Assembly: GCA_964450865.1 (NCBI GenBank)
Contig: CAYVHB010000004.1
Location: 40,363-104,362 of the forward strand
DNA length: 64,000 bases
Direction of reading: 5' to 3'
Source of the DNA: an uncultured Oscillospiraceae bacterium
GTDB taxonomy: Bacteria; Bacillota; Clostridia; Saccharofermentanales; UBA5734
Below, piece by piece: positions 6,832 to 51,849 of the stretch (position 1 is its first letter; each line of letters starts with the position of its first letter). The notes under the pieces were generated by a model. That model searched no databases and was not told the DNA's origin. It saw only the letters and a list, made by a program, of their open reading frames with translations. The position numbers and the translations under genes are program-made.

Positions 6832-6851
6832 ACAAGATCCAGATCCGCTCC

Positions 6852-7155
6852 CGGACCCCATCCGGCACCCCCTATCCTCCCCCCCGGCCCAGGCTGAACA
6901 TATAAGCCCGGCACCAGGCCGATGCACCCGGGCGAGTTCCGCAGCCGCGACAGCGGCGAGGACCCCATCCGGCACCCCCTATCCTCCCCCCGGCCCAGGC
7001 TGAACATATAAGCCCGGCACCAGGCCGATGCACCCGAGCGAGTTCCGCAGCCGCGACAGCGGCGAGGACCTGTTCGAGCGAAGTGCACGGCCTGGTGCCG
7101 GGCAATCGTTTATGCTTGGCCCAGACTACGCGGCCTGGTGCCGGGCAATCGTTTA
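6852..7155. repeat. Two tandem about 105-bp direct repeats (6853-6959, 6960-7066) plus two copies of a 24-bp element GGCCTGGTGCCGGGCAATCGTTTA (7089-7112, 7132-7155) whose core is the reverse complement of a 16-mer inside each 105-bp unit
   Basis: Directly seen: units differ by a C-run length (C8 vs C6) and one G/A; GCCCGGCACCAGGCCG (forward, x2) vs CGGCCTGGTGCCGGGC (x2). Confidence 0.85.
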
Positions 7156-7170
7156 ACCACGCCACCAACA

Positions 7171-10602: not shown

Positions 10603-10721
10603 GCGTCAGGTGAACACCATCATTCTTGATCAGGCCGGGCACTGGCCTGGCCTGGCCGGTCAATTGCGGATCAGGCCCGGGCGCTGGCCTGGCCGTTCTG
10701 GTCATGTCCGGTCCGAATCCG

Positions 10722-19678: not shown

Positions 19679-20596
19679 GTGAAAGATATTCAGGATTTAA
19701 TCAGCAAGGCTGAGATATTAATCGAGGCATTACCTTACATCCAGCGCCTGGCTGGCAAGACGGTCGTGATCAAGTATGGCGGCAATGCCATGATCAATGA
19801 GGATCTCAAGACTCACGTCATGGAGGACGTGACCTTGCTCAAATTCATCGGGATCAATCCGGTGCTGGTACATGGCGGCGGCCCGGAAATCAGCGGCATG
19901 CTCAAGCGGCTGGATATCCCCTCGGAGTTTCGCCGTGGCCTGCGCGTGACAGATGCCGAAACGATGGGGGTCGCCCAGATGGTACTGGTCGGCAAGACCA
20001 ACAAGGAAATTGTTGCGCGGCTCAATCAGCTGGGTGCCAAAGCTGTCGGTATCTGTGGCATTGACGGCCGCCTGATCGAGTGCGAGAAACTGACCACGGA
20101 CGACGACGGCCAGCCGCTCGATATCGGCTACGTCGGGAAAATAACGGGCATCAATACCAAGATCCTGGCAACGCTGGCCAGCGACGAATACATTCCGGTC
20201 GTCGCGCCTATCGGCATGGGCGCCAACGGCGAAAGCTATAACATCAATGCCGATACCGTGGCCAGCGAAATCGCCTCGGCGCTGAAAGCCGAGAAACTGA
20301 TGACCCTGACCGATGTGGAAGGCGTCAAGGTCAGGAATGAGCAAGGTGAAGAAACAGTGATCCCAGTCCTGAACCAGGTCGAGATCATGGACATGATTGC
20401 CCGCGGCGTGATCAGCGGCGGGATGATCCCCAAAGTCCTGGGCTGCCTCGATACTGTCCTGCGCGGCGTAGGCCGGGCCCACATTATCGATGGTCGCATC
20501 CCGCATTGCCTCTTGCTGGAGATTTTCACCAACAAGGGCATCGGTACCATGATCACCCAGGAACGCCGGCCCTATTATCAGGGCGAGAAAATCTGA
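19679..20596 (+). CDS. argB: Acetylglutamate kinase
   Basis: [19 protein letters not shown] amino-acid-kinase motifs; GTG start after GGGGAGG RBS. Confidence 0.9.
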
Positions 20597-24299: not shown

Positions 24300-24500
24300 C
24301 TGGACAATAAAAAACCCCCAGGCAAGCGCATGGGGGCATCCGGCAACCTGAAAAACAGGCTATGCCAGTTTCCTATCATCCAGACTATACTGTCGGCCAA
24401 GGAATCACACCTTGTCAGCCTCTTGCGAGGGTCGCGGGCTCGACAGCACATGGCCGCCATCACCGCCGGTAGGGACTTGCACCCTGCCCCGGAAAACTGC
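24300..24500 (-). promoter_or_regulatory. FMN riboswitch (RFN element): aptamer about 24366-24499 plus intrinsic terminator 24303-24336
   Basis: Minus strand reads TTTTCCGGGGCAGGGTGCAAGTCCCTACCGGCGGTGATGG...AGCCCGCGACCC...GGTGTGATTCCTTGGCCGACAGTATAGTCTGGATGATAGGAAA, matching all conserved RFN blocks, then GCCCCCATGCGCTTGCCTGGGGGTTTTTTATTG terminator. Confidence 0.88.
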
Positions 24501-24514
24501 ATTGTCGTCTCGTA

Positions 24515-24607: not shown

Positions 24608-25810
24608 TCAGATCAGGTAATTGCTGATATGTTCGTAAATCCCGTCCCGGAGGTAGGCGCGCGGCACCCGTTTGCCAATGATGCACGTGACTTCATAGTT
24701 GATCGTTTCCATCCAGCCGGCAACTTCATCAACCGGCAGTTCAGCCTGATGGCCGGCGTATTGCTGGCGGCCAAAGAGCACCACTTCATCGCCGGTGCGA
24801 ACCTTCTCACGGTCAGGAAGGGCCGTCAGGTCAGCCATGCAGGTATCCATGCAGATCCGGCCAACCACCGGGCAACGCTGGCCATGGATCAGCAGGCTGG
24901 CCCGGCCGGTCAGGCGGCGGGAATAGCCATCGGCGTAACCGATCGGCACAGTGGCAATGACGCTGGTTTGCCCAGTCGTAAACAGGCGGCCATAACTGAT
25001 GCTGGTTCCCGGCGGCACGGTCTTGCTCAGGACAACATTGGACTTCAAAGTCATAGCCGCCTGCAAACCGGGCAACGGCTCGGGACAGTCCGGCGGGATC
25101 ATGCCGTACAAGATCAGGCCGGGACGGACCATGTCAAGATGCATAGCCGGGAAGCGCATGGTCGCCGCGCTGTTGCAGACATGCTTGATGGGAATAGCCA
25201 GGCCTATGCGGTCCAGCTCACGGCTGATGCTCATGAATTGCTCGAACTGGGTCATCACATATCCGGTGTCCGCTTCGTCGGCAGTGGCAAAGTGCGTAAA
25301 GAGTCCTTCGACGATGACGCGCGGCAGGGAACGGATCCAGGTGATGGCTTTGATAGCCTCATAGCCAGCCATAAATCCGACCCGGCCCATGCCGGTATCG
25401 ACCTTGATATGGATGCGGGCGTCACGATCCAGTTCAATCGCCGCTGCTGATAAAGCCTCAGCCAGGTCACGGCTGTAAACCGTCTGGGTCAGCCGGTAGC
25501 GAATAATCTCGGCGGCCCGCCGGGGGTCTGTATAGCCGAGGATCAGAATTGGCACTTCTATTCCGCGCTGACGCAATTGAATGGCCTCGTCGAGCATCGA
25601 AACAGCCAGGCGGCTGACACCGGCCGCCAGCAAAACCGGTACAACGCGCTCCACACCATGGCCGTAGGCATCAGCCTTGACGACGCCCATGATTTCAGTG
25701 GTGCGCCGGGTGTGGTGGCGGATTATGCCAACATTGGCGGCAATGGCATCAAGGTCAACTTCCGCCCAGGAACGATTCAGCAGATAATCCGACAATCGAA
25801 AATCAGTCAT
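24608..25810 (-). CDS. alr: Alanine racemase
   Basis: PLP-lysine motif VVKADAYGHG; C-terminal racemase domain; start MTDF with GGAG RBS, overlaps nnr stop. Confidence 0.9.
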   Translation of the reverse strand: MTDFRLSDYLLNRSWAEVDLDAIAANVGIIRHHTRRTTEIMGVVKADAYGHGVERVVPVLLAAGVSRLAVSMLDEAIQLRQRGIEVPILILGYTDPRRAAEIIRYRLTQTVYSRDLAEALSAAAIELDRDARIHIKVDTGMGRVGFMAGYEAIKAITWIRSLPRVIVEGLFTHFATADEADTGYVMTQFEQFMSISRELDRIGLAIPIKHVCNSAATMRFPAMHLDMVRPGLILYGMIPPDCPEPLPGLQAAMTLKSNVVLSKTVPPGTSISYGRLFTTGQTSVIATVPIGYADGYSRRLTGRASLLIHGQRCPVVGRICMDTCMADLTALPDREKVRTGDEVVLFGRQQYAGHQAELPVDEVAGWMETINYEVTCIIGKRVPRAYLRDGIYEHISNYLI

Positions 25811-27584
25811 GATCATGCTCCATTTCTGCCTGGCCGGCTGGATTCTCCCAGCCGGCTGTCTGGAAAGCCTGGCCAATCGCCTGTAAAACATCGCCTGGCA
25901 GCATGGCGCGATGGCCGCGCCCGATGGCTGCCAGGTCGGCGGCCAGACCATGCAGATAAACAGCGGCGGCCGCCGCAGGCGTAACTGGTAAACCCTGGGC
26001 CAGCAAGCCAGTCAGCAGACCGCAGAGCACGTCCCCGCTGCCCCCCTTGGCCAGCCCCTCATGACCGGTCAGATTGATATAAGTCCGACCAGCAGGATCC
26101 GCTACCACGGTTGAGGCCCCCTTCAGAATGACGACGCAAGACAGGCGGCTGGCCAGCTCACGGGCAGCCGCCTGCCGGTCAGTCTGGTCGATATCTGGTG
26201 CCAGGCGGGAAAACTCGCCCGGATGCGGGGTTAAAACCGGCCATGGCCACTGAGGTTGAAGCAGGTTGCGCTGTCGAAAGCGTTCCTGCCAGACTGGCAT
26301 CTGACGGGCCAGATGGTTGAGGGCATCGGCATCGAGAACCAACGCCGGGGCCATTTCCAGGGCCAGCTGCATGGCTGTCTCCAGCCAGCCAGCCTGGCCG
26401 GCACCCGGACCGATCGCCACCGCCTGCTTGCCGGCAATGAGTGGCAGCAGCAGCGCGGCCAGCAACTGTTCAGGCAAGGATTCAGCCTGGCGGGCGTCCG
26501 GACGCTCACTGCGCGGCCCGGCAGGCTGCTCACTGAGTGGCCCAGGCCGGGACTCTGCGGCACCATCCGGGATTGAGGTCAGCAAGGCTTCCGGCAGAGC
26601 CGGCAAGACCAGGCTGGCGACAGACGAACTGACGCCCAGATACACCAGGCCAGTTCCGGCCCGGGCAGCAGCCGTGCCAGCCAGGCAGATCGCCCCGGCC
26701 AGGCCCGGACTGCCCCCGAGCAGCAAGGCCCGGCCAAACCGGCCTTTATGCCCATCCGGACGTCGCGGCAGACACCAGCTTTTAACCAGCGGGGCATCGA
26801 TGATCTCGGGCAAACTTTCCTGAGCCAGCACCTGCTTCAGCATTCGTTCCGATACACCGATAGAGGCCGTGACCAGGTGCCCCGCGTTGAAACGGCCCGG
26901 GGCCGCAATCAGCCCGGTCTTGGGCCGCACGAATGTGACCGTCGCATCGGCTTCGATCGCTCCCACGGCTACTGCGCCACTGTCGGCGTCAACACCGCTG
27001 GGAATATCGATCGCGATGAGCTGCGAACCGGCTTTTCGCCCGATAGCCAAAGCTGCTGTTAAAGTGGTCACGATTTCCGGTAACGGCCGGCCAACCCGGA
27101 ATCCGGTACCGAATATCCCGTCAATAATCAGGTCAGCCTGCTGCAGGGCAGGATGCAACGGGACATCCGGGCCAGGCTGCACGGGCAGCGGCGGGCGGTC
27201 AGCTGACAGGCAACCGGTTGCTGATACAGATACTAAATCAGCGGCGGGCCATAAGGTGTTACCAAGCCGCAGCCAGGCTTCCCGATTAAGGCTGGCCTCC
27301 GCAGGCAATGGCTCGCCCGGGAAAACCTCGCAACAGTCGACGGTCAATCCTTCAGCCTGCAACAGGCGGGCGCAAGCATAGGCATCCCCGCCATTTTGCC
27401 CCTTGCCGGCCAGCACCAGGACGCGGGCCAGTGAGCGGCCGGATGGTGCAATCAGGCTCAGGCAATAGTGACAGACGGCGGTTGCAGCCTGTTCCATCAG
27501 CAGCAGCAGTGGCAAGCCGGTCTGATGGGTCCAGGCTTCGTCAAGCAGGTGCTGGGCTTTTCTTCCGATCGTCAGCATATTCAC
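25803..27584 (-). CDS. nnr: Bifunctional NAD(P)H-hydrate repair enzyme Nnr (epimerase YjeF_N + ADP-dependent dehydratase) with internal low-complexity insertion
   Basis: N-terminal LVLAGKGQNGGDAYACARLL and DGIFGTGF (YjeF_N); C-terminal carbohydrate-kinase-like domain GGSPGLAGAI, GHEGLAKGGSGDVL; about 70-aa Pro/Ser/Arg-rich insert. Confidence 0.85.
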   Translation of the reverse strand: MNMLTIGRKAQHLLDEAWTHQTGLPLLLLMEQAATAVCHYCLSLIAPSGRSLARVLVLAGKGQNGGDAYACARLLQAEGLTVDCCEVFPGEPLPAEASLNREAWLRLGNTLWPAADLVSVSATGCLSADRPPLPVQPGPDVPLHPALQQADLIIDGIFGTGFRVGRPLPEIVTTLTAALAIGRKAGSQLIAIDIPSGVDADSGAVAVGAIEADATVTFVRPKTGLIAAPGRFNAGHLVTASIGVSERMLKQVLAQESLPEIIDAPLVKSWCLPRRPDGHKGRFGRALLLGGSPGLAGAICLAGTAAARAGTGLVYLGVSSSVASLVLPALPEALLTSIPDGAAESRPGPLSEQPAGPRSERPDARQAESLPEQLLAALLLPLIAGKQAVAIGPGAGQAGWLETAMQLALEMAPALVLDADALNHLARQMPVWQERFRQRNLLQPQWPWPVLTPHPGEFSRLAPDIDQTDRQAAARELASRLSCVVILKGASTVVADPAGRTYINLTGHEGLAKGGSGDVLCGLLTGLLAQGLPVTPAAAAAVYLHGLAADLAAIGRGHRAMLPGDVLQAIGQAFQTAGWENPAGQAEMEHDHD

Positions 27585-28039: not shown

Positions 28040-28179
28040 TGTGTACCTCCTCAAGCCGGCACCATGCCTGCTCTTTTCAAAAGCGATTGGCAGCAGCCGA
28101 CTGTATCATTAGTACGCTGATTATAGCCGCCAGGCTGAAATTTCACAGTAACTGAAGTTACAAGCCAACCAGCCGGCAT

Positions 28180-28282
28180 GAATGGCGGCAAGGCCGGACG
28201 GTGTCTCCTGGATGGCCATTGCCCTGAGCGCGGAATTGGCTAGTCGGCGTGAATGGCGGCAAGGTCGAACGGTGTCTCCTGG
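28180..28282. repeat. Degenerate tandem duplication (period 71) of the last 12 codons of metA, second copy lying in the 3' UTR
   Basis: GAATGGCGGCAAGG(C/T)CG(G/A)ACGGTGTCTCCTGG at 28180-28211 and 28251-28282; downstream copy still translates ETPSGLAAIHAG vs genuine [12 protein letters not shown]. Confidence 0.8.
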
Positions 28283-29166
28283 TAGACATAGTAATTCAGC
28301 CAATTGGCAAACAGCAGGTAGGCGGCACTGCGCCAGCGCACAACCGGCGGGCGTGTCGGATCGTCATGCTGGAAGTAATTGCGCGGGACCCTGATCGGCA
28401 GGCCACGGGAAATATCACGGTCATATTCATTGCGCAGTGTCTCCGGATCATATTCCGAATGACCGGTCAGGAAAATCTGCCGGCCGGACATGTCGGAAAC
28501 GGCATAGACACCGGATTCTTCGGATTCGGACAGGATCCGCAAATGGGTAATCTTCTCCAGGTCACTGCGCCGGATCTCGGTGTGCCGGGAGTGGGGCACG
28601 TAAAAGACATCATCGAATCCGCGGAACAGCTTGACCGGGCGGGTCCAGCTGCGGCTATGGGCGAAAACGCCAAACATTTTCTCGGGCAAGTCATATTTGG
28701 GCACGCCATAATGATAATACAGGCCAGCCTGGGCCCCCCAGCAGATATGCAAGGTTGAGTAAACGTGGGACTTGCTCCAGTCCATGATTTCACACAATTC
28801 CGGCCAGTAAGCCACTTCCTCAAAGGGCATCTGCTCAACCGGGGCTCCGGTGATGATCATGCCGTCATAACGGCGCTCCCGCACGTCACTGAATGTCTCA
28901 TAGAACTTGACCAGGTGCTCGGTCGATGTATTGCGCGGATTGTAGGATGCCGTATAGATGAAATCGACGTCCACCTGCAGCGGCGAATTGCTCAGCAATC
29001 GCAGCAGCTGGGTCTCGGTGACGATTTTCGTCGGCATCAGGTTGAGGATAAGAATTCGCAGCGGGCGGATATCCTGGGAATAGGCCCGGTTGTTTTTCAT
29101 TACGAAAACACTTTCCTGTTCCAGAATTTCTGCCGCCGGCAAATCGTCAGGAATTTTGATAGGCAT
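28240..29166 (-). CDS. metA: Homoserine O-acyltransferase (MetA family)
   Basis: [24 protein letters not shown]-terminus, [12 protein letters not shown], catalytic Cys/His blocks; RBS AAGGGGGA. Confidence 0.88.
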
Positions 29167-29264
29167 GCGCATCCCCCTTGCTGTTTTGGTGATATGAGTA
29201 TTCACTCATGTCTGATCATTGTCAAGCCATTTTAAACATTGCCAGCGTTGCGATAAAATCAGGC

Positions 29265-29359
29265 AAAACCGAGTCCGGTCCGATGTCCAGGTGATCAATC
29301 GTTCAGATGAATTCATGTAAAATCGAGTCCGGGTCGATATTCAGGTGATCAATCATCGG
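29265..29359. repeat. Degenerate tandem duplication (period 54) of the last about 12 codons of the udk-like gene, straddling its stop codon
   Basis: AAAA(C/T)CGAGTCCGG(G)TC(C)GAT(G/A)T(C/T)CAGGTGATCAATC at 29265-29302 and 29319-29359; 3' UTR copy translates TIDHLDIGPDSVL vs real MIDHLNIDPDSIL. Confidence 0.8.
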
Positions 29360-30295
29360 GATTTGCTCACAGGCTGAAGCCAGGAAGCGCGCTTCGGCAA
29401 CGGCGGCCGGCAAATCGGCATAACCGCTGCGGGTTGCATGATAAATGGAACCGGGCAAAGTGTCGTCTTCGTATTGTTGCAGCGATTGGCAGATCTGGCG
29501 ATAGGCCTTGGGCGCTACCAGGCAGAACTCGTAGGGCAGGCAGGAATTGATGTAGATATCAGCAGCAGCCAGATAACTGGGGAAAAATACCTGCTCGGTC
29601 CGGTCAATCATCGGCCAGTAATCAATCGTTGACAGGGCTGTCGAGCCCCGGTGGACCACATCCCGGCTGATCCGGCGCAGCATCCGCAGGTCACGGCTAC
29701 CCAGCAGCTGGCGTCCCGACAGCAAGGTGCACCAGGGCATGATGAAGATCCCCAGATAAAAATCGCGGGGCAGCTGGCCGGCGATCTGCGGTGACAGCCC
29801 ATGCAGGCCCTCTACCAGTACCAGTTCGTGATTGGTCAGCTGAACGGTGTATGCCTCCGGATAGGACCGGCTGCGGGTCTGGAAATTGAAGCTGGGCAGG
29901 CTCACCCGGCGGCCAGCCATCAGATCATTGAACTGGGTGACCATCAGGTCGGTATCAAGGGTGTCCAGGCTCTCATAATCCGGCCGGCCCCAGGCATCAT
30001 AGCGGACGCTTTGCGCGCGATAGTAGTCATCCAGCGAGATAACATGGGTGGGGCGGCCCATGGCGCTCAGCGTGCGGGCCAGGCGACGGGTTGTCGTCGT
30101 CTTGCCGGAGGCTGTCGGCCCGGATATAAAGACGGCCTTGATGGCCGGTCGCCGGCAGATCTGCTGCACGACCGCATCCAGCTGCGCCGAAAAAGCGTCT
30201 TCGGAGGATTTGGCAAACCGGGTCAGTTTCTTGACTCCGAGCGATTCTTCCAGGTCTTCGACCGTCAGGATGATCATTTTGCTTAATTCGGCCAT
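29303..30295 (-). CDS. Uridine/cytidine kinase family protein (PRK/URK-like nucleoside kinase) with N-terminal extension
   Basis: P-loop ISGPTASGKTT, DDYY, and C-terminal LRRISRDVVHRGST block typical of Udk. Confidence 0.7.
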   Translation of the reverse strand: MAELSKMIILTVEDLEESLGVKKLTRFAKSSEDAFSAQLDAVVQQICRRPAIKAVFISGPTASGKTTTTRRLARTLSAMGRPTHVISLDDYYRAQSVRYDAWGRPDYESLDTLDTDLMVTQFNDLMAGRRVSLPSFNFQTRSRSYPEAYTVQLTNHELVLVEGLHGLSPQIAGQLPRDFYLGIFIMPWCTLLSGRQLLGSRDLRMLRRISRDVVHRGSTALSTIDYWPMIDRTEQVFFPSYLAAADIYINSCLPYEFCLVAPKAYRQICQSLQQYEDDTLPGSIYHATRSGYADLPAAVAEARFLASACEQIPMIDHLNIDPDSILHEFI

Positions 30296-30433
30296 TATTG
30301 TTCACCAGCTTTGTTGTTTATCAGACGGATGATTTTTGTGATATGATAAGGCCTGGTCGGCGGCGTGACAGGCCAGCATTCTGCTGGCCGGCCGGCGCGG
30401 TCCGGCCGAGACTATCTGGATGAGGAGCAGTTC

Positions 30434-31168
30434 ATGCTGGGTTTTGGTACTTTAGTCAATGTCGGGGCAATCATGGCCGGTTCGGGAATCGGCCTGCTGA
30501 TCAAGGGCGGCCTGCCGGACCGGTTTCAGAAGATTATTTTTCAGGCGATCGGCCTGGCCACGCTATTTGTTGGCATCAGCGGCGCGATCGCCGGCTTGCT
30601 CAAGCCGGTCGGGGGACAGCTGACCGGCCAGCAGACCATGATGATGGTCCTGGCGATCGTCCTGGGCAGCCTGCTTGGCGAAGCGCTGGACATCGTGCGC
30701 TGGATGGAATCACTCGGCAAGGCGATCCAGCTGCGAGTCCGCGGACTCGGGTCCAATCCGCGCTTCGTTGAAGGATTCGTGTCAGCCTCGCTGCTTTATT
30801 GTGTGGGTGCCATGGCGATTGTCGGATCGCTGGAAGACGGGCTGACCGGGCAAGCCAATACATTATACATCAAAGCGCTTCTGGACGGTACAACAGCTGT
30901 CATTTTTGCCGCAACATTGGGCAGTGGCGTCTTCTTCTCGGCTTTTTCCGTCGGTCTCTATCAGGGAGCTATCACAGTAATGGCCAGGTTTCTCAGTCCG
31001 CTGCTGACTGAGGGGCTGATCGCCCAGGTATCGCTGGTTGGTTCGGTCCTGATTACCGGGATCGGCATCAATATCCTCTGGGATCACAAGATCAAAATCG
31101 GTAATATGCTGCCGGCCGTCCTGATGCCGGTGCTGTTTCAATGGATTCAATCCATCTGGCCCTTCTAG
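30434..31168 (+). CDS. DUF554 family membrane protein (YqgA-like)
   Basis: Start MLGFGTLVNVGAIMAGSGIGLL after RBS GAGGAG; hydrophobic 6-8 TM pattern with family-typical N-terminal block. Confidence 0.7.
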   Translation: MLGFGTLVNVGAIMAGSGIGLLIKGGLPDRFQKIIFQAIGLATLFVGISGAIAGLLKPVGGQLTGQQTMMMVLAIVLGSLLGEALDIVRWMESLGKAIQLRVRGLGSNPRFVEGFVSASLLYCVGAMAIVGSLEDGLTGQANTLYIKALLDGTTAVIFAATLGSGVFFSAFSVGLYQGAITVMARFLSPLLTEGLIAQVSLVGSVLITGIGINILWDHKIKIGNMLPAVLMPVLFQWIQSIWPF

Positions 31169-31285
31169 CCAGCCTCGGGCTTCAGTTCCCATTTTCCAGG
31201 CGTGACAGGCATAGCAGTGGCGGGTGTCATTTTCAGGTAACACCCGCCATTTACATTGAATGGTGCAAGAGTCCGGAAATGCCGC

Positions 31286-32716
31286 TTATTTTTTCGCCGG
31301 AGCAGCGCCGACCGGGGTGGAACCTTCAGGCTGGCCGGACAGGGCCGGTACCGCTGACTGGCTGGGCTGGCCGAGGTAGCTGGGCAGATTCATGCCCGCC
31401 ATGTTGAAGAGGTCCTGCAGCGGCGGGATTGATTTCATCAGGCCGGAGAGAAAATTGGCCGTCGCCGGAGCCTGGCCGTCACCGCCCTGGCTGTCCCAGA
31501 CTGTGATCTTGTCGATTTTGACGTTTTTGATCGCTTCGACCTGGATCTTGACCAGCTCTTCCAGTTTGTCGGCAATGAGCAGCCGCAGGGCGTCGTTGGC
31601 ATCGCCACCGGCGGCTGTAACCACCTGGCCCAGGCCGGCGGCCTGGCGGGTCAGGATCTCCTGCATACCGCGGGCCTCCGCTTCCATTTTCAGGAAGATC
31701 GCATCAGCTTGACCCCTGGCCTGTCGGCGCAGTCTCTCAGCTTCAGCTTCGGCTTCAATCTCAATCTGGCGCTTGGCAATTTCCGTTTTAACCAGAATAT
31801 CGGCTTCCTGGGTCGCCCGCTCACGCTCGGCGCGGACGCTTTCGGCTTTTTGTTCAGCGGAATACGCTTCTTCCAGCGCCTTGGCCGCCATGATTTTTTC
31901 TGCTGTTGTCGCCCGCCGCAGGGAGTCTGCTTCTTTTTCCCGGCGGGTCGCATTCGAGGCGGCAATGGCTGCCTTGGCTTCGTTTTCACCCTGGATAGCG
32001 GTTGAATCCGCTGCTGCGACCTGGATCCGCTGGTCACGGCGGGCGTTGGCCTCGCCGATGGCGCCATCGCGGTCTTTCTCGGCTACTGATTTCTTGGCAT
32101 CGTTGATGGCCTTGGCGGCGGCTTCCTTGCCGAGAGCATCAATATAGCCGGATTCATCGTTAATATCGGTCACGTTCACGTTGATCAGCCGCAGGCCGAT
32201 CTTTTTCAGCTCGCCTTCCACGTTGCGTGATACAGCTTCGAGGAATTTGTCGCGGTCGGTGTTGATTTCCTCGATATCCATCGTGGCAATGACCAGACGC
32301 AGCTGGCCGAAGATGATGTCCTTGGCCAGCTCCTGGATCTCCGGCAGTTTCAGGCCGAGCATCCGTTCAGCCGCGTTCTGCATGATCCCCTGTTCTGTGG
32401 AGATGCCAACTGTAAAGCGGGATGGCACGTCAATCCGGATGTTTTGCCGGGACAGGGCATTTTTAAGGTCGACCTGGATGGAGATCGGTGTCAGGTCCAG
32501 ATATGCGTAGTCCTGGATAATCGGCCAGACAAATGAGGCACCACCGTGTACACAGTGGGCGGAGCGGCTGGTGCCATCCTTGTTGCTGCCGACTTTACCG
32601 AAAATGACCATGATCTTGTCGGATGGACACTTGCGGTAGCGCGACAGCACAAGCAGGAAGGTGGTGAAGAACAGAACGAAAATGACAATGACAGCGATGA
32701 TGATGGTTGGGGGCAT
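31286..32716 (-). CDS. floT: Flotillin (SPFH/band-7 domain) FloT/YuaG-like
   Basis: N-terminal TM MPPTIIIAVIVIFVLFF, SPFH domain, long EA-rich coiled-coil repeats; RBS AAAGGAGAA; NfeD gene upstream. Confidence 0.85.
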   Translation of the reverse strand: MPPTIIIAVIVIFVLFFTTFLLVLSRYRKCPSDKIMVIFGKVGSNKDGTSRSAHCVHGGASFVWPIIQDYAYLDLTPISIQVDLKNALSRQNIRIDVPSRFTVGISTEQGIMQNAAERMLGLKLPEIQELAKDIIFGQLRLVIATMDIEEINTDRDKFLEAVSRNVEGELKKIGLRLINVNVTDINDESGYIDALGKEAAAKAINDAKKSVAEKDRDGAIGEANARRDQRIQVAAADSTAIQGENEAKAAIAASNATRREKEADSLRRATTAEKIMAAKALEEAYSAEQKAESVRAERERATQEADILVKTEIAKRQIEIEAEAEAERLRRQARGQADAIFLKMEAEARGMQEILTRQAAGLGQVVTAAGGDANDALRLLIADKLEELVKIQVEAIKNVKIDKITVWDSQGGDGQAPATANFLSGLMKSIPPLQDLFNMAGMNLPSYLGQPSQSAVPALSGQPEGSTPVGAAPAKK

Positions 32717-32904
32717 GGGGTTCTCCTTTCTGGGCCAGAAAGCGATGCTGGCCGGGTCCTGTTGGGATAAAACGGGACGCTGCTTAGCAGGAAGAGCGGG
32801 ACAGGCAGGATGGGCAAATGGAAAAAACAGGTGCGCACAATGGGAGATCATGGGGGGTGAATGCATAAACGGAGTGAGTATTGCGGACGGTCCGGTCCAG
32901 CAAT

Positions 32905-33693
32905 TTACGTGCGGCCGGGGGACTGGCTTTTATCAGCATTCAACGGTTCTACCAGCAAAACATCGCCTTTGCGGCCGGTTACGGTGATCAGCTGGCCCGT
33001 TCCGATGGTCTCGGGATAGTTCGTCATGACATCCAGTTCAACCAGGCGCTCCTGCAAGGTCAGGGTAATTTTCCCGGTGCCGCGCATGGAGCCCGGGATC
33101 CGCAAGTAAACCTGTCCGGTCAGGCCGATCGCACCGTTCAGGTCCAGATTGCCACTGCTTTGCAAGGATAAAACCAGCTTGAAGATCCAGGCAATCAGAA
33201 CCAGGGCCAGCAAACCGGCCACCAGGGCGAGAAAGGAAGCCAGCAGGGCGGGCATCTTCAGGTCGATCAGGGCAATCCCCACCCAGCCACCGACGGCAAA
33301 GAATCCGACCAGGCCACGCACGGTGATCAGACGCAGGCCAATATCGGTGTGGGCAGCCGGATGTTCACCCGGATGAGACGCCAGATCATGGATGTCGCCA
33401 CCATGGCCCAGGGTGTCCATACCAGCCGACGTGTCCGGAGCCATCACACTGTCCGTGTAACTGCCGCCAGCCAGGTCAGCCTCATGACCGGCCGGGGCGT
33501 GGGCAGCATCAAAGCCGTGGCTGTCAGCCAGGTCGCTGCCCGCACTGTCAGCCCCATGGGCGTCGGTACCATGACCGCTACCGATGCCAAAGAGCAGCAG
33601 GATGGTCTGAATGGCAAGAATGACAGTAGCCGGCAAGGCAAAAAGGGCCAGGATTTGCTGGACAAGGGTCAGATTGTTCCACCAGGTAATCAT
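32905..33693 (-). CDS. NfeD-like membrane protein (YuaF-like, flotillin-associated) with His/Asp-rich insert
   Basis: N-terminal TM helices, C-terminal OB-fold block GQLITVTGRKGDVLLVEP; immediately upstream of floT as in yuaF-floT operons; start could alternatively be TTG at 33774. Confidence 0.7.
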   Translation of the reverse strand: MITWWNNLTLVQQILALFALPATVILAIQTILLLFGIGSGHGTDAHGADSAGSDLADSHGFDAAHAPAGHEADLAGGSYTDSVMAPDTSAGMDTLGHGGDIHDLASHPGEHPAAHTDIGLRLITVRGLVGFFAVGGWVGIALIDLKMPALLASFLALVAGLLALVLIAWIFKLVLSLQSSGNLDLNGAIGLTGQVYLRIPGSMRGTGKITLTLQERLVELDVMTNYPETIGTGQLITVTGRKGDVLLVEPLNADKSQSPGRT

Positions 33694-33770
33694 TTTTAAC
33701 ACTCGCTTCCGTGCAGGCCTGGCCGTGGCACAAGAACTGCCAGGCCACTTTATCTTGTTGCCAGGGGTTT

Positions 33771-34388
33771 TCAATCGGGTAATTGGCTGTTAAGCGGGCT
33801 GGGCAGGCTTTGTTTCAGATTCGTCAGCTGGCGATTGATCCGTTCATGCAGTAATGATGCGGCATAGGCTTCGACCATAATCAGCAGTACGGCATGGAGA
33901 GTCTGACGGGCTCCGGATTCCCGTTCTTCAAAGCCGGCAGTCACCTGCTCAATCCTGGCGAGGATCGCTGACTGACTCCACAGATCGCAGGACTCAATCG
34001 AGAAAACCAGATCGCAAAAATAAAAATACAATTCGCTGTCATCAATCAGGTCGTCACCTTCGTCAGCCAGATTGCGATTAATGGTACTAAGCAAAGTAAC
34101 GACATCGTCCAGGGGCAGGGCGTGACGCAGCACGGCTATCAGGATGATGCGGGCCATCTGGCGCTGGGTGTAGCGCTTGTTGACCGGGCTGGGCACAAAG
34201 CCCCGCTTGACCCAGTTCTGCAACGTCACCCCCGAAACGCCAACGATATCAGCGATCTGTGAGAGATAGATGCCGCCCGTAATTGCGAAAGCGCCAGCCA
34301 GGGCTGTCCGGAAATCCGGAATACTCTGGCCACTCAGGCGAATCCGGGTCCCTGGCAAAAATGGATCCATCTGCTGCACATTGGTCAC
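33771..34388 (-). CDS. DUF1836-like HTH domain protein (putative transcriptional regulator)
   Basis: HTH LSQIADIVGVSGVTLQNWVKRG near N-terminus; GTG start; own promoter carries palindromic operators. Confidence 0.55.
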   Translation of the reverse strand: MTNVQQMDPFLPGTRIRLSGQSIPDFRTALAGAFAITGGIYLSQIADIVGVSGVTLQNWVKRGFVPSPVNKRYTQRQMARIILIAVLRHALPLDDVVTLLSTINRNLADEGDDLIDDSELYFYFCDLVFSIESCDLWSQSAILARIEQVTAGFEERESGARQTLHAVLLIMVEAYAASLLHERINRQLTNLKQSLPSPLNSQLPD

Positions 34389-34421
34389 CCCCGTCTAATT
34401 GAATGAACCAGTAATAGAGTC

Positions 34422-34484
34422 ATTGTAACACATGGTCATATGACCGTCAATATCATTCACTAGATCTTTATAAATGGTCATTTA
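34422..34484 (-). promoter_or_regulatory. Promoter of DUF1836 gene (TTGACG-N17-TACAAT) with 12-bp perfect palindrome GGTCATATGACC in the spacer and second related palindrome TAAATGGTCATTTA 30 bp upstream
   Basis: Seen directly: -10 at 34422-34427, -35 at 34445-34450, palindrome 34434-34445; second palindrome 34471-34484. Confidence 0.5.
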
Positions 34485-34735
34485 AACTTCAGCGGGTCCA
34501 CGAAAAACCTTGCAGCCGGGCTGATTATTCACGCGATCTTTTTTATCAGCCGTTTAAACCAGTGCCAGGCCAGTCTGCAGATTGCATGTATATATCCTTG
34601 ACTTTACCGCAGGTAATTGGGAAAATACCCATTATGTATGCCAGTCGAAACGGCGAGCAGACACAATTTGCCGCCGCGATCAAGCTAGTCCATAACCACC
34701 CGGCTATTCATCCATATCATGCGAGGAGAATACTT

Positions 34736-35566
34736 ATGAAGCACCTGAGAATGACCGCCATACTTGTTCTGGTCCTGATCCTGTCCCTGGTGCCCCTGGC
34801 CGCCTGCAGCGTTACCAACAGCAAACAGTTCCGGGTCGGGCTGGAATGTGCCTATGCCCCGTTCAACTGGACGCAGACCGACAACAGCAATGGCGCCGTA
34901 GCGATCAGCAACAGCAAGGGCGAATATGCCGGCGGTTACGATGTCGAAATTGCCAAGAAAATCGCGGCCGGGCTGGGCAAGGAACTGGTGATTGTCAAGA
35001 CCAAGTGGGACGGACTGATCCCGGCTATCGTCGCAAGCAAGATTGACGCGGTCATCGCCGGTATGTCACCGACCGCCGAGCGCAAAGTCACCGTGGATTT
35101 TTCTGACTTCTATTACCGTTCTGAGCTGGTCATCGTCGTGAAGAAGGATAGTCCGTTTGCCGCTGCCAAATCCCTGGCCGATTTCAAAGGGGCTAAAATC
35201 ACGGGGCAGCTGAACACATTCCACTATACCGTTATCGATCAGATTCCCGAAGTTGCCAAACAGACCGCGATGGACAGTTTCCCGGCGATGATCGTAGCTT
35301 TGAATTCCGGCAAAATTGACGGCTACATTTCGGAAAAGCCAGGCGCCGACTCAGCTGTAGCCGCTAATCCAGGCCTGACCTATGTTGCCTTTGCCGCTGG
35401 TTCCGGCTTTAACTATTCGGATGAAGACGCAGCCGTCTCAGTCGCCATGAAGAAGGGCAATGCGGAGACACTGACCAAAATAAACGAAATCCTGGCCGGG
35501 ATCAGCCAGGCTGACCGTGACCAGATGATGAAGGATGCCATCAAGAATCAGCCGATCAGCCAGTAA
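34736..35566 (+). CDS. Polar amino acid ABC transporter substrate-binding lipoprotein (family 3 SBP)
   Basis: Lipobox LAACSV, SBP_bac_3 pattern; RBS GAGGAG; followed by permease and ATPase. Confidence 0.85.
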   Translation: MKHLRMTAILVLVLILSLVPLAACSVTNSKQFRVGLECAYAPFNWTQTDNSNGAVAISNSKGEYAGGYDVEIAKKIAAGLGKELVIVKTKWDGLIPAIVASKIDAVIAGMSPTAERKVTVDFSDFYYRSELVIVVKKDSPFAAAKSLADFKGAKITGQLNTFHYTVIDQIPEVAKQTAMDSFPAMIVALNSGKIDGYISEKPGADSAVAANPGLTYVAFAAGSGFNYSDEDAAVSVAMKKGNAETLTKINEILAGISQADRDQMMKDAIKNQPISQ

Positions 35567-35588
35567 ACCAGTCAGCCAGTAAACCAGT
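35557..35588. repeat. Perfect 16-bp tandem duplication CAGCCAGTAAACCAGT x2 straddling the SBP stop codon, followed by CCAGT-rich low-complexity spacer to 35660
   Basis: Seen directly. Confidence 0.85.
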
Positions 35589-35741
35589 CGACCGGTACGG
35601 ACCGGTCAGCCAGTCAATCCAGTTGCCAGTCAGTTGGCCAGCCGGACCGGATGCATGCGAACCGGCTGGTCTTCTGATCATTCACGATGGCCGCCTGTCG
35701 CCTCGCGCCAGCGATCCATATCACACACAGGAGAGCACCCG

Positions 35742-37484: not shown

Positions 37485-38216
37485 ATGACAACACAGATCT
37501 GGGCGCACCGCGGTGCGAGCAAAATAGCCCCCGAAAATACCCTGCCGGCCTTTGAGCAGGCTGTCCGCCTCGGCGCGGATGGAATTGAGCTGGATATCCA
37601 GCGCACAGCAGATGGCCATCTGGTGGTCGTTCACGATGAAACCTGCCACCGGGTTACCGGGCAGGCCGGATGGATTCACCGCATGACCCTGGCCGAATTG
37701 CGCCAGCTCAATTTTGCCGCGACCTTCAGCCAATTTCCCGGCACAACCCTGCCAACCCTGGACGAGGTGTTCGACCTGATTCGCCCAACCCGCCTGGTCA
37801 TCAATATCGAGCTGAAAAACGGCCTGATCCCTTATGCCAATATGGAAAACGAAGTCATCGCCCTCGCTGATGCCTGGCAGATGACGGAGCGGGTTTATTT
37901 TTCATCGTTCAATCATTACAGCATGCGGGAAATACGCCAGCTTCGTCCGGATATCCGCTGCGGCCTGCTTTATGAGTGTGGCCTGGTCGATCCCTGGCAA
38001 TATGCCCGGCGAGTCGGGGCTACGGCGATCCACCCCTCCTTCCCGAATCTGCAGATTCCCGATCTGACGGCACAGTGTCACGATACCGGCGTGGCGATCC
38101 ATGCCTGGACGCTTGATGATCCGGAGATCCTGCGCAAGGCCATGAACCTCGGCATTGACGCTGTCATTACCAATGTTCCGGACCTGGCGGCGGAAATTCG
38201 CGCCACCCTGGCCTAG
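37485..38216 (+). CDS. Glycerophosphodiester phosphodiesterase
   Basis: HRGASKIAPENTLPAF and ELDIQRTADGHLVVVHDE GDPD catalytic motifs. Confidence 0.85.
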   Translation: MTTQIWAHRGASKIAPENTLPAFEQAVRLGADGIELDIQRTADGHLVVVHDETCHRVTGQAGWIHRMTLAELRQLNFAATFSQFPGTTLPTLDEVFDLIRPTRLVINIELKNGLIPYANMENEVIALADAWQMTERVYFSSFNHYSMREIRQLRPDIRCGLLYECGLVDPWQYARRVGATAIHPSFPNLQIPDLTAQCHDTGVAIHAWTLDDPEILRKAMNLGIDAVITNVPDLAAEIRATLA

Positions 38217-38283
38217 AAACGCCACCCTGGCTTAAAAACTATATTGCACGCAGATTTCAGATATCCAGGCTAAGGAGACTGCC

Positions 38284-40789: not shown

Positions 40790-41063
40790 GCAAGACCAGG
40801 ACAAGATTGCTGTGCCAACTTGATCCAGCCGTGTTAAAATTAAGCTGTAGCAGTCCCTGCCGTTCGCTGCCTTTCGCTGCCGTTCCGCAAGTTGCTCAGT
40901 TGTTCGCCGCCCTGCCGCAAGTTGCTTTGCCGTCGCCAGCAAGTATCAGCTGTTGTCAGACGCATTTGAGTCTGTTCTCTGGATATCCGGATCCTGCAAT
41001 ACGCTGCAGGCCGATCATTCCAACTGAGAATCAAGATCTGCGCTTTTCGGGGAGGGATGATAC

Positions 41064-44000
41064 ATGGCATCCGAACGCGTAAAACCCGTTAAACCGGCTC
41101 AGCCGGGCCCCGCTTCGCCGACATCCGGCAGTCTATCTGCCGCCACCACAAACACGAACATCAGCCAGCCGGGCCCGGCCACTACTACCGGAAACAAGCC
41201 GGGTAATCAGCCTGCCCCAGCCAGGCCCGGTCGACGTCCTGGCTGGTTGCGAGTTGATAAAAGACTGCTCCGGGCCTTTGGTGCCGGAGCCCTGGCAGCT
41301 ATTCTTGTTTTCAGTATCCTGCTGACAGCGTTGAATCCCGGCTGGCTGGCCGGCACTTTTACCCGCCAGATTGGCAGCCGTACGCTGGCCCAGGAAGTCA
41401 ATCTGCAGCCGGTCACTGCTGCGCCGGCTACCCTGAAAGCAGCGGCCGAGATTGAGCAGACCTTTAACCTGGCCCTGAGCCAGGCTGAAATCAAGTCTAC
41501 CAAAACCGATTATTATCAGCTTGGCGGCTTTTTCCGGGACCTGAAAATCAGTGCCATCAAGCCGGCGGGTGACCAGCTGGCGATAACCATCAAGGGCAAA
41601 ATTGCCGATCCACATGCCTATGGGCCGGATGTCGGCAATCCCGACGGTGAAATCTACGTCATGCCGGAAGCCCTGCAGGACTCGACAGCTGCCTTTGCGG
41701 CCAGGATTACCATTGAATACCCGCAACTCAATCCGCAGACGACCGTTCTGGAGGAAAAGCCGGCTTATAGCGACCAGCTGGTCTTCACCCTGCAGGGTGA
41801 CACGTTCCGCCAGGTACCAACAGCTGCCGATATCACGCTGGGTGGCGGGTTTACCGGCATGACCGTCGCAGCCGTTCGCCAGCAGGAACAGGAGCTGGCC
41901 CTAACCATCACGGGCGGCCTCGATCCCAATGGCGGCAATGGTATTGTCACGCTGGCCGGCACAGCCCTGGGCAGCGCATTTTCTGTTGACCAGGTGATCA
42001 GGATTGCCGGCACAGCCTGCCTCTTCTCTTTTACGCCGCTGACCGTTGAAGAACCCCTGCAGGAAACGCTGCTGGTCGGTATTGATCACGATTCCTTTGC
42101 AACTGACCTGACCGCAGACATGTTCACGCTCGGCGGCGGCCTGGCTGATGCGCGGATTACCGAGGTCCGGCCGACTGACCAGCCCAATGCTGTCTGGCTG
42201 ACCATTCAGGGAGCAGCCTTGCGCCAGCCCGGTTCAGCCAGCCTGCGGGCCGAGGCCCGGGCTGTGACGAGTGGCCGTGCTGTCACCGGCACAATCGACA
42301 TTCGTAATCCGGATATTTACGCTTTCCATGTCATGGACAGCCAGGCCAACCAGGCCACCGATAATCAGGTCTATGATCTTTACACCCTGGGCAATGACTT
42401 TTTGCCATACCTGCAGGCAGGCGACTTCGTCCTCAAGGATGCTCTGTCTTTTTGTAAAATCACAGCGGTAAAATGGCTCAACGGCTATCATGTGCTGCTG
42501 ACAGTGCGTGGTTTGCCCGGCAATGGCGAGGGACGCATCGCAGTCCGTTCGGCCGCGCTCGGGGGGGTGACCGGCGCGGATGCGGTCGTCCAGAAGATCC
42601 GCCAGGCTGATCTCCTGATCGCGGGAACCAGCGACGCAGCCTTGCTGCAGGCGCCACAACCAGCAGACCAGGCAAGCAGCCCGGCCTTGTTGCAGACATC
42701 GTTGCCATCCGGCCTGGCCGGCCTGGACATGGTTCGCTGGCAACAGATCCTGTCCCCGGGCGGGCTGGCCGGCGGGAACTGGGGTAACCAGATGCCGGTA
42801 TCAGGCATCCGGACGTTAACCGCCCCATCCGCGGGACTGCGCGCGGCAGCCAGTCCGCTGCGCCTCAATACCACACCCGCGTCTGAAGCCCAGCTGATGT
42901 GGGGACTGGACCAGCTTATCGACTGGGGTATCGACAAGGTCAAGGGACTGGTTATTGAGGGGATCAAATCAGGCCTGAAAGCCGGTGCGACCAAGGGCCT
43001 GATGTACGGCCTGCGGGAAACCGGACTGCAAGGGCCGGCTGTTGAGGATCTGCTCAAGGAAATCCAGACGTCGCTCGACCAGATCCAGAAACAGCTCGGT
43101 ACCATGCAGAATGTGCTCAGCGAAGCCATCAGCGACACGGAGCTGAATGGCCAGCTGGCTTCGTTACTGGAAGCCCAGACCAAAATCAAACGGGCCTATG
43201 AGATGTATGTATTCCTGCAAAGCCAGATCAAAGATTATGAAGCGGCCAACCCTGGCAAAAAAGCGCTGGATGATCCGGATATCAGGCACGCCAATGAATT
43301 GTTCATGAATGAGATTGCCACGAAGGACATCGAAACGGCGACCCTGCAGATCGCCCAGGCCATGGCCGGCAATTCGCAGGCAACGTCACTGATTACGATT
43401 TATTACAATAACCGCAAGCACAAACTGCCCTTTGAGCACAATGCCGCCGAGAATCTGCGCCAGTTTTACCAGGAAATGCTGATGCTGCAAACTCAGGGGC
43501 TCCTGCTCTATGCCGAATACTGCAATTACAACATGGCCAGCAGCCAGCTGTTTTACAATAACAAGCTGGAAACCATGACCAATACAATCTCGGAAAGCCT
43601 GGACGCCCAGAAAAAGTTCCTGCCACCGGACAGCGTGTTCAAGGTCAAGAACAATCCGCTCAGCGGTGACATCCGGGTCAAGAGCAACTACAGCGGCAAG
43701 TCGTACATCCTGGTCAAGGGGGCCTCTACCATGGCCCAGCTGACATCGGACAAGCAGGCAAAAAGCGGCTTTGTGATCACCTACTATATTCCCGTCAACC
43801 AGAACAAGGACGGCACTAATTCCGACAAGGCCCTGGTCAAGATCCTGCGCGACCGCGGGAATACAGCTGTCAATACAGCCAGTACCGAAAGCGGTGATGC
43901 CCCGACAACCGGGCCATACCGGGAACTGGCCAAAAGTGATATCGCCGACCTGCTTTACTACCATAAGGAAAAGAAACTGGAGACAAATACCATCAATTTC

Positions 44001-44207
44001 TTTGCAAAATATACCGGTGCCGACGGTCTGGTTGATTATCTCTATCTGAAACGCGAGGGCAGCTCAATCTTTGCCCTGCTGGGTCCGCTGGATTATAACT
44101 ACGACATCTACGACATGCGGACTGACAGCTACCGGACTTTCAAAGCCTCGGACCTTTTCAGCAAATACAAGGATTATTATGAGAAAATAATCCTGGCTGT
44201 TCGCTGA
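41064..44207 (+). CDS. Large (1047 aa) membrane-anchored modular surface protein of unknown function
   Basis: RBS GGGAGGGATGA; Pro/Gly/Thr-rich cytoplasmic N-tail, single TM (residues about 69-91), four tandem about 85-aa beta-rich repeats, Pro/Ala linker, about 420-aa C-terminal domain with helical then beta-rich halves and lower GC. Confidence 0.8.
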   Translation: MASERVKPVKPAQPGPASPTSGSLSAATTNTNISQPGPATTTGNKPGNQPAPARPGRRPGWLRVDKRLLRAFGAGALAAILVFSILLTALNPGWLAGTFTRQIGSRTLAQEVNLQPVTAAPATLKAAAEIEQTFNLALSQAEIKSTKTDYYQLGGFFRDLKISAIKPAGDQLAITIKGKIADPHAYGPDVGNPDGEIYVMPEALQDSTAAFAARITIEYPQLNPQTTVLEEKPAYSDQLVFTLQGDTFRQVPTAADITLGGGFTGMTVAAVRQQEQELALTITGGLDPNGGNGIVTLAGTALGSAFSVDQVIRIAGTACLFSFTPLTVEEPLQETLLVGIDHDSFATDLTADMFTLGGGLADARITEVRPTDQPNAVWLTIQGAALRQPGSASLRAEARAVTSGRAVTGTIDIRNPDIYAFHVMDSQANQATDNQVYDLYTLGNDFLPYLQAGDFVLKDALSFCKITAVKWLNGYHVLLTVRGLPGNGEGRIAVRSAALGGVTGADAVVQKIRQADLLIAGTSDAALLQAPQPADQASSPALLQTSLPSGLAGLDMVRWQQILSPGGLAGGNWGNQMPVSGIRTLTAPSAGLRAAASPLRLNTTPASEAQLMWGLDQLIDWGIDKVKGLVIEGIKSGLKAGATKGLMYGLRETGLQGPAVEDLLKEIQTSLDQIQKQLGTMQNVLSEAISDTELNGQLASLLEAQTKIKRAYEMYVFLQSQIKDYEAANPGKKALDDPDIRHANELFMNEIATKDIETATLQIAQAMAGNSQATSLITIYYNNRKHKLPFEHNAAENLRQFYQEMLMLQTQGLLLYAEYCNYNMASSQLFYNNKLETMTNTISESLDAQKKFLPPDSVFKVKNNPLSGDIRVKSNYSGKSYILVKGASTMAQLTSDKQAKSGFVITYYIPVNQNKDGTNSDKALVKILRDRGNTAVNTASTESGDAPTTGPYRELAKSDIADLLYYHKEKKLETNTINFFAKYTGADGLVDYLYLKREGSSIFALLGPLDYNYDIYDMRTDSYRTFKASDLFSKYKDYYEKIILAVR

Positions 44208-47170: not shown

Positions 47171-47436
47171 GTCAAAACACCTCCCGATTTTGCCGGATTT
47201 ACGGACCGGCAGACCCGTACCCGGCATGTTTTCAGGGCCTGCACATTTCAGGCGCCTGGCACCACGGCCGGGTATTCTATTTATTATAGCTGAAAATTGA
47301 ACAGGAAAGTTATACCCAGGAGCATTGCCAATTTCAGGCGCCAGGCAGACCCGCGAGCAAAACAGTTTTCAATCACCGGGCACAAATCAGAAACGGAGCA
47401 AGCCGCAGCCGAACCTGGCACTGGCGCTGGCACTTT

Positions 47437-51704: not shown

Positions 51705-51849
51705 AACCTTTCCAGACTCCAGGCAAGCATAGCGCAACCTGCCAGTCCATGAAATATTGCCAGGCGCCAGGTGAAGCATAGCATGATCAGATAACAAATA
51801 TTGCGTTACCAGGTATCAGGTACAGCGTTACCAGGAATCAGGGCAACCG

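Follow-up and report, generated by a model that had tools for sequence, protein, structure and literature searches.

Why do the last codons of several unrelated genes recur just behind their own stop codons within one stretch of a bacterial genome? The stretch in question is a 64-kb segment from an uncultured Clostridia species (hereafter the window, with 56 genes on its gene map), and an initial annotation of part of it had described such repeats at three genes. All three are real, and a fourth had been missed. We refer to them as cases a (metA), b (a PRK/uridine-kinase-like gene), c (an amino-acid-binding solute-binding protein, SBP) and d (glycerophosphodiester phosphodiesterase, GDPD, the one overlooked), and to the downstream copies as ghosts. 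These repeats are probably the neutral footprint of tandem duplication of the slippage or microhomology type, which is denser in this lineage than elsewhere and is filtered by selection. This is a known kind of mutation that is unusually dense in one uncultured lineage; we found no description of stop-spanning duplications or ghost C-termini in bacteria in the literature searched.

The repeat scan was annotation-free and covered every diagonal at periods of 6-200 nt, and genes were called by codon usage, in agreement with Logan gene calls at spot-checked positions (e.g. 19679-20596 and 24608-25816). The window contains 14 short-range direct repeats, four of them stop-spanning, six intergenic, four intragenic and none start-spanning. 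The period of all four intragenic repeats is divisible by 3, and no out-of-frame intragenic repeat occurs among the 14. Outside the interval covered by the initial annotation, one stop-spanning and six intergenic events are still found. When the intergenic segments were shuffled, about 0.05 such repeats were obtained, with 0.025 stop-spanning and 0 intergenic matches per window. We also compared the last 63 nt of each gene, including the stop, with its own downstream 130 nt by Smith-Waterman alignment, using the downstream regions of other genes as the null; this flags exactly the genes of cases a, b, c and d (empirical p <= 0.005), and the equivalent test at gene starts flags no gene in the window.

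The baseline for these counts was drawn from other Clostridia and Negativicutes; it comprised 73 loci, with 1235 genes in 1.33 Mb, processed with the identical scan and gene caller, and yielded 4 stop-spanning, 4 start-spanning, 24 intergenic and 57 intragenic matches. Stop-spanning repeats are found at 4 of 56 genes here versus 4 of 1235 baseline genes (p = 2e-4), and at none of 360 genes when the comparison is limited to the 21 GC-matched loci (p = 3e-4). Non-coding repeat events amount to 1.5 per kb here versus 0.145 per kb; the repeat density is approximately 10-20 times that of other Clostridia loci, or about ten-fold per kb of non-coding DNA. The duplications exceed both chance expectation and the levels of other genomes, in line with the earlier suggestion of a lineage-specific process, and this points to a higher formation rate or a slower loss of duplications in the lineage. 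In the three closest relatives, one clear event was seen: in contig L093 the stop of the DUF554 gene is spanned by a perfect duplication of 14 bp, which hints that the tendency is shared within the genus. One Synergistales contig (L079, 6926-7128) carries a 25-nt direct repeat, 84% identical, that flanks an apparent tRNA gene; this is probably a duplication of the att type, not a tandem one, and makes the stop-spanning count of the baseline slightly too high.

The duplications a-d are not assembly artefacts. Logan contigs from nine Sequence Read Archive (SRA) runs that encode an identical MetA align with the window without gaps at 99.8-100% identity. Sites a and b are covered by nine of these conspecific contigs, site c by four and site d by one, and each duplication is present in every contig covering its site. 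An origin in assembly or sequencing could be argued from a further conspecific Logan contig (L095), in which the 106-bp repeat of the window (Table 1) has one copy, a chimera of both window copies, so that this particular repeat is polymorphic or else mis-assembled in one assembly. The single copy reflects either real polymorphism or reversion, or collapse in the de Bruijn graph. For cases a-d an artefact has next to no probability, given the gap-free coverage, the divergence between the copies of a and b, and the length of the copies of c and d, which is below that of typical k-mers.

The age of the events was approached through relatives. The best species-representative relative has a MetA that is 85% identical, and outside the species PRK identity reaches at most 78%, followed by 75% and 69% (contigs L090, L093 and L091, respectively); the protein search returned no PRK relative between 100% and 78% identity, and therefore the events can be dated only to the time after the split from L090 and L093. 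These three contigs retain the DUF554 / PRK-metA-trx / SBP-permease neighborhood, and at the orthologous loci none of them has duplications a-c (a is also lacking in contig L001), each carrying one copy; the duplications are derived. The gene tails of PRK, metA and the SBP gene match the C-termini of relatives, and for this reason the upstream copy in these three cases is the conserved, ancestral functional tail and the downstream copy the decaying one, in line with the original proposal that the 3' end was copied together with its stop and left a decaying ghost. The two copies are 90%, 80%, 100% and 89% identical in cases a-d, a range which suggests that the duplication process is ongoing rather than the result of a single burst.

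In case a, the metA tail had been reported to recur 71 bp downstream in translatable form, and we confirm this with a longer block: 41 nt at 28242-28282, holding the last 12 codons, occur again at 28171-28211 with 90% identity and a spacing of 71, and the 12 residues encoded by the gene copy read ETPSGLAAIHAG in the ghost. In a gapped alignment the unit grows to approximately 68-71 nt, beginning with GCCAATT and finishing exactly at the stop (28240-28242, minus strand), which is TAG in the gene copy and TGG in the ghost; the 5' 30 nt of the unit are weakly similar between the copies (P = 0.025 versus shuffles). The exact MetA protein is encoded in 12 Logan contigs. The palindrome TTGTAACTTCAGTTACTG that follows the ghost is kept among relatives and marks the ancestral end of the spacer; the metA-trx spacer is 200 nt long here, against 129, 131 or 172 nt in the L090, L093 and L091 contigs and 128 nt in L001. 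The same palindrome, upstream of trx, overlaps the likely -35 box and has an operator-like appearance.

Case b was first described as a 38-nt repeat at a distance of 54 bp. The repeat is present at that spacing, but it is a complete 54-nt tandem unit (29300-29353 and 29246-29299, 80% identical) that spans the last 16 codons, the TGA stop (29303-29305, minus strand) and 3 further nt. The units are exactly head-to-tail and end in TGAACG in the gene copy and in GCAACG in the ghost. The gene copy encodes SILHEFI followed by the stop, and the ghost encodes SVLPDFI followed by GCA at the position of the former stop. Our search found 404 PRK homologues, and the 12 retrieved (330-365 aa) all have a common C-terminus, the longer ones being extended N-terminally; SILHEFI or SILNEFIR stands at the same position in every sampled homologue (42% to 78% identity). 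In L090 the PRK stop is followed by 4 nt and then by the metA -35 box (TGA CCAC TTGACA). In the window the ghost intervenes and distances the metA promoter from the PRK stop.

The perfect 16-bp duplication over the TAA of the SBP gene (case c; stop at 35564-35566, plus strand) had been taken as a single event. It is present, but it is the youngest layer of an iterated 8-mer slippage array that has decayed. The motif CC[AG]GT occurs in 9 copies spaced 7-10 nt apart, the first starting at 35560 and the last at 35626, and the array occupies the front 80 nt of a 175-nt SBP-permease spacer that is 24 or 4 nt long in relatives. The tail of the protein (KNQPISQ and stop) matches that of L090 (KNQPVSQ and stop). 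A permease N-terminus ghost in this spacer was considered as well and rejected, as no match was found (P = 0.55). The GDPD repeat (case d) reads CGCCACCCTGGCCTAGAAA then CGCCACCCTGGCTTAAAAA across the TAG at 38214-38216, and like that of the SBP gene it consists of exact head-to-tail units (19 and 16 nt, respectively). The GDPD protein closes with EIRATLA and stop, which would be its ancestral end. Short stop-containing direct repeats downstream of genes are also described for marine Beggiatoaceae (PMC4679880) and resemble the CCAGTAAA units of case c; there, however, one conserved heptamer, TAACTGA, is found at 169 sites genome-wide, whereas the units here derive from local sequence.

Ghosts could be maintained by selection, as an extension reached through readthrough or frameshifting, as a reservoir of C-termini, or as 3' untranslated region (UTR) structure that serves mRNA stability or the downstream promoter; roles of this kind had been raised as an alternative in the initial annotation. 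The reading frame of PRK continues past TGA-ACG into the ghost with 24 open codons following ACG, which would give a 26-residue extension (recoded UGA and Thr counted), the core of the metA ghost (90%) is better kept than its 5' part and adjoins the conserved palindrome upstream of trx, and the SBP-permease spacer contains two local hairpins. Stabilizing hairpins are known at the corresponding position of other ABC operons. However, the ghost offsets modulo 3 are 2, 0, 1 and 1, so that one of four is in frame, as by chance, and the PRK ghost is in frame by chance. Ghosts a-c are absent in all relatives compared and the PRK homologues all stop at one residue, mutations have altered the former stop codons, and non-conservative changes are present in the PRK ghost. 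The three spacers fold no more stably than shuffles (z-scores of -1.2, 0.0 and -0.7), and no Rfam family is matched at the ghosts, the match in the window being to an unrelated flavin mononucleotide (FMN) riboswitch. A selected role is unsupported by these data and very improbable. Programmed readthrough or recoding was rejected on account of inconsistent frame offsets and non-conserved extensions, and selected RNA structure in the three spacers on account of folding like that of shuffles and the lack of an Rfam match there.

A second possibility, allele replacement, is suggested by the metA locus, where 29 nt that separate the gene from its ghost have almost no similarity to what precedes the gene copy, and where the ghost rather than the gene copy adjoins the conserved downstream palindrome. 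An incoming homologue would have recombined with one illegitimate junction and left the tail of the resident allele behind. For metA itself this is also possible, but we rate it low because the unit has its start at GCCAATT and its end precisely at the stop (TAG or TGG), which suits a tandem unit of 68-71 nt. As an account of the four cases it is quite improbable: both copies of case b include 3 nt past the stop and follow each other exactly head-to-tail, the units of c and d (16 and 19 nt, exact tandems) are too short to be gene remnants, and the window has purely intergenic duplications of an equal size class.

A copy of a gene's 3' end just downstream of the gene is also the hallmark shared with the variable and template repeats (VR/TR) of diversity-generating retroelements (DGRs) and with the attL/attR sites of integrative elements that target gene 3' ends and leave an intact gene end and a second copy downstream. 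In cases a and b, moreover, 8 of 15 differences lie at A of the gene copy. The A-bearing copy is nevertheless the gene, which is the opposite of a DGR. Most of the changes are A-to-G transitions, differences are found at each of the four bases, and in the template sense the pattern is not specific to adenine. No variation of the gene copy is seen across nine conspecific contigs, the targets are housekeeping genes, and the repeats, at 16-54 nt, fall short of the roughly 100 nt or more of DGR repeats. In comparison with att sites, no element lies between the copies, which abut or stand 18-30 nt apart; four unrelated genes with differing repeat lengths are involved, and periods of 16-106 nt are too variable for a site-specific system. 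The window encodes housekeeping genes, and no reverse transcriptase, integrase or transposase was detected in it by Pfam annotation, which drew on our scans and on the tables of genes called in conspecific contigs and covered most but not all open reading frames (one, of 1047 aa at 41064-44207 on the plus strand, has no Pfam match), and explanations of the DGR or integrative-element type are therefore removed, leaving them extremely improbable.

Tandem duplication blind to position makes a prediction about where surviving events should lie. We placed segments of the observed lengths uniformly onto the gene map, and approximately 85% of random placements are intragenic. For the about nine harmless, non-intragenic events the expected numbers are 4.7 for intergenic, 1.8 for stop-spanning, 1.9 for start-spanning and 0.55 for mixed events; 5-6 intergenic, 4 stop-spanning, 0 start-spanning and 0 mixed are observed. 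Stop-spanning events are not significantly over-represented relative to intergenic ones, and stops are not a preferred target but places where duplications survive selection. The excess at stop codons holds against shuffles and against other genomes but is not significant against the placement model, and the window also has six purely intergenic events of this kind. Intragenic events are near-absent and in frame, and this is the pattern expected of position-blind duplication filtered by purifying selection.

Under the proposed mechanism, the repeats would be neutral footprints of short tandem duplications with periods of 16-106 bp that arise by replication slippage, template switching or a microhomology-mediated route. 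A duplication running from the last codons to past the stop would produce two successive tail-stop units, of which the upstream one would retain frame and stop, leaving the protein unchanged, while the downstream one would become an untranslated ghost free to decay. Intragenic duplications would shift the frame or add residues and be purged by selection, and start-spanning ones would probably upset the ribosome-binding site and promoter spacing. The survivors to be seen would then be intergenic, stop-spanning and a few in-frame intragenic duplications.

Cases b, c, d and the 106-bp unit are exactly head-to-tail, and relatives are single-copy for a, b and c. The shared ends are GGACC (5 nt) in the 106-bp unit, TC (2 nt) in c and 1 nt in a, b and d. 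The combination of head-to-tail arrangement and short shared ends is consistent with replication slippage or microhomology-mediated tandem duplication (MTD), and we infer both the molecular mechanism and the neutrality of the duplications. Tandem duplication between microhomologies has been reported to be universal, including in bacteria (PMC8639346; bioRxiv 10.64898/2026.02.28.708716). The present repeats resemble those described in that work in being head-to-tail copies of a single-copy segment of tens of bp, in having short shared ends (GGACC, TC), and in the expansion to multi-copy arrays (compare the 8-mer array after the SBP gene). The 106-bp unit, single-copy in L095, may be reversible. 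The repeats differ in that the shared ends are mostly 1-2 nt, below the arms stressed in the cited work, and older events are unscorable in this respect.

Several observations weigh against this interpretation. The asymmetry between stops and starts (4:0, with approximately 1:1 expected) has a one-sided p of about 0.06, which is suggestive only, and possibly reflects a deficit of duplications at starts. The shared ends are short (1-5 nt), so that the microhomology signature is weak. Decay of the metA ghost is uneven, with a core of 41 nt that is 90% identical and 5' 30 nt that are barely alignable, and this counts against a plain duplication because uniform decay would be predicted from it. 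Similarly, the 7088/7131 pair has an A-B-A arrangement (25 nt perfect, with a unique 18-nt spacer) and is not a full-unit tandem. No second copy of the metA spacer (28212-28239) or of the spacer at 7113-7130 was found in the window beyond scattered 10-mers, and both the metA ghost and the 7088/7131 pair may need a second event, either a deletion or templated filler. The claim about the lineage is based on approximately 69 kb of genome, with a baseline of one locus per foreign genome whose genes were called with a home-made gene finder, and with 36 kb altogether from the closest three relatives. A genome-wide excess of duplications is what we infer from this sample.

A stronger version, that the species is a natural tandem-duplication mutator in which a change in replication or repair has raised the rate of 10-100-bp duplications genome-wide, is unlikely. 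Candidates would be an atypical AddA or a gene outside the window. The addA gene (58992-63587, minus strand) encodes 1531 aa versus approximately 1234 aa in the family model and carries insertions; the protein matches TIGR02785 in five pieces with 685.7 bits, just below the cut-off of 707.65, and no PD-(D/E)XK domain was detected in it with Pfam. These oddities may be relevant to rates of illegitimate recombination. The neighboring addB, just past the window (contig L097), has a normal appearance. If the mutator interpretation were true, spacers, 3' UTRs and C-terminal tails in this species would be visibly built from local sequence, the SBP-permease spacer (4-24 nt in relatives, 175 nt here) being an example of such growth.

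Ghost tails are a recognizable and harmless footprint that can mislead gene callers, predictions of 3' UTRs and small RNAs, and searches for recoding signals, and knowledge of the pattern guards against over-interpretation. On a small scale, the window illustrates how selection determines which events of one mutation class remain to be seen, and how non-coding spacers can expand from local sequence. Should the approximately ten-fold excess hold genome-wide, the lineage would be a useful natural case for the control of short tandem-duplication rates in bacteria.

Table 1. Genes, repeat units and associated features, with positions in the window unless a contig is named.
Feature	Position	Strand	Basis or remark
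metA (homoserine O-acyltransferase, HTS family), 308 aa	28240-29166	minus	Pfam PF04204, E = 6e-140; Logan gene call
metA gene-side copy of the ~68-71-nt unit, last 22 codons and TAG	28240-28310	minus	sequence matches orthologous C-termini in L001, L090, L093
metA ghost tail, core 28171-28211 90% identical	28169-28239	minus	offset 71 nt, out of frame
Palindrome TTGTAACTTCAGTTACTG between metA ghost and trx	28146-28163	minus	kept in window, L090, L093, L091; variant in L001
PRK/uridine-kinase-family gene, 330 aa	29303-30295	minus	Pfam PF00485
PRK gene-side unit IDHLNIDPDSILHEFI, then TGA, then ACG	29300-29353	minus	repeat scan and alignment
PRK ghost unit IDHLDIGPDSVLPDFI, then GCA replacing the stop, then ACG	29246-29299	minus	without counterpart in L090, L093, L091
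metA promoter TTGACA, 17 nt, AATACT	29197-29225	minus	kept in relatives
Amino-acid-binding SBP gene (family 3), 276 aa	34736-35566	plus	Pfam PF00497; Logan gene call
Perfect 16-bp x2 duplication across SBP TAA	35556-35589	plus	2-nt shared end (TC)
Decayed 8-mer array nnnCC[AG]GT, 9 units	35557-35635	plus	starts in last three SBP codons
GDPD gene, 243 aa	37485-38216	plus	Pfam PF03009
GDPD 19-bp x2 duplication across TAG, 89% identical	38201-38239	plus	identical in L083
106-bp x2 tandem duplication, 98-99% identical	6853-7074		5-nt shared end GGACC; 22 nt past serpin stop
25-nt perfect direct repeat, spacing 43	7088-7155		16 nt past minus-strand polysaccharide deacetylase stop
Intergenic direct repeat, spacing 42	10635-10711		11 nt past minus-strand S41 peptidase stop
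Layered intergenic repeats: 10-nt x2.9; 24 nt at spacing 30	40857-40926		3' of ROK-family gene
Intergenic direct repeat, 17-22 nt, spacing 86	47245-47347		repeat scan
22-bp x2 tandem duplication in leader	51803-51846		upstream of ATG at 51910
In-frame 51-nt-period repeat in addA, 24 nt perfect	59632-59706	minus	one of four intragenic repeats
Perfect 14-bp x2 across DUF554 stop	L093 245-273		repeat scan; relative with PRK 75% identical

The 106-bp duplication and the 7088/7131 pair lie in the spacer between the convergent serpin and polysaccharide deacetylase genes (6832-7170), for which a fold with two long hairpins, one nested in the other, is predicted (-162 kcal/mol, z = -8.1). A hairpin arm of 16 nt, GCCCGGCACCAGGCCG, is found on the plus strand at 6906 and 7012 and on the minus strand at 7088 and 7131. 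The original hairpin seems to have had each of its two arms duplicated. The structure could be a bidirectional terminator or an element resembling repetitive extragenic palindromes (REP) or miniature inverted-repeat transposable elements (MITE).

In the flanks, 4.5 kb on the left contain a ribosomal operon and no relevant repeat events, and 4.9 kb beyond the right end contain two more repeats (10-bp x2.5, and 21 nt at a spacing of 74). The former, GCGGGGCCGG x2.5 at L097 183-215, lies approximately 4.7 kb past the right end of the window, where it directly follows a DAGK-family gene and its stop. Read on the opposite strand, this array codes for the last residues of a convergent, overlapping acyltransferase, whose C-terminal tail may have been remodelled by the 10-bp duplication.

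Two further features of the window were noted. Between DUF554 and the SBP gene, positions 31286-34388 hold three genes that are absent there in the relatives L090 and L091, encoding a flotillin/Band 7 protein, a 289-aa protein without a Pfam match and a DUF1836/MerR-like protein; the segment looks like a lineage-specific insertion. The FMN riboswitch (RF00050, 102.9 bits) is located at 24364-24501 on the minus strand, upstream of a gene of the energy-coupling factor (ECF) transporter type.

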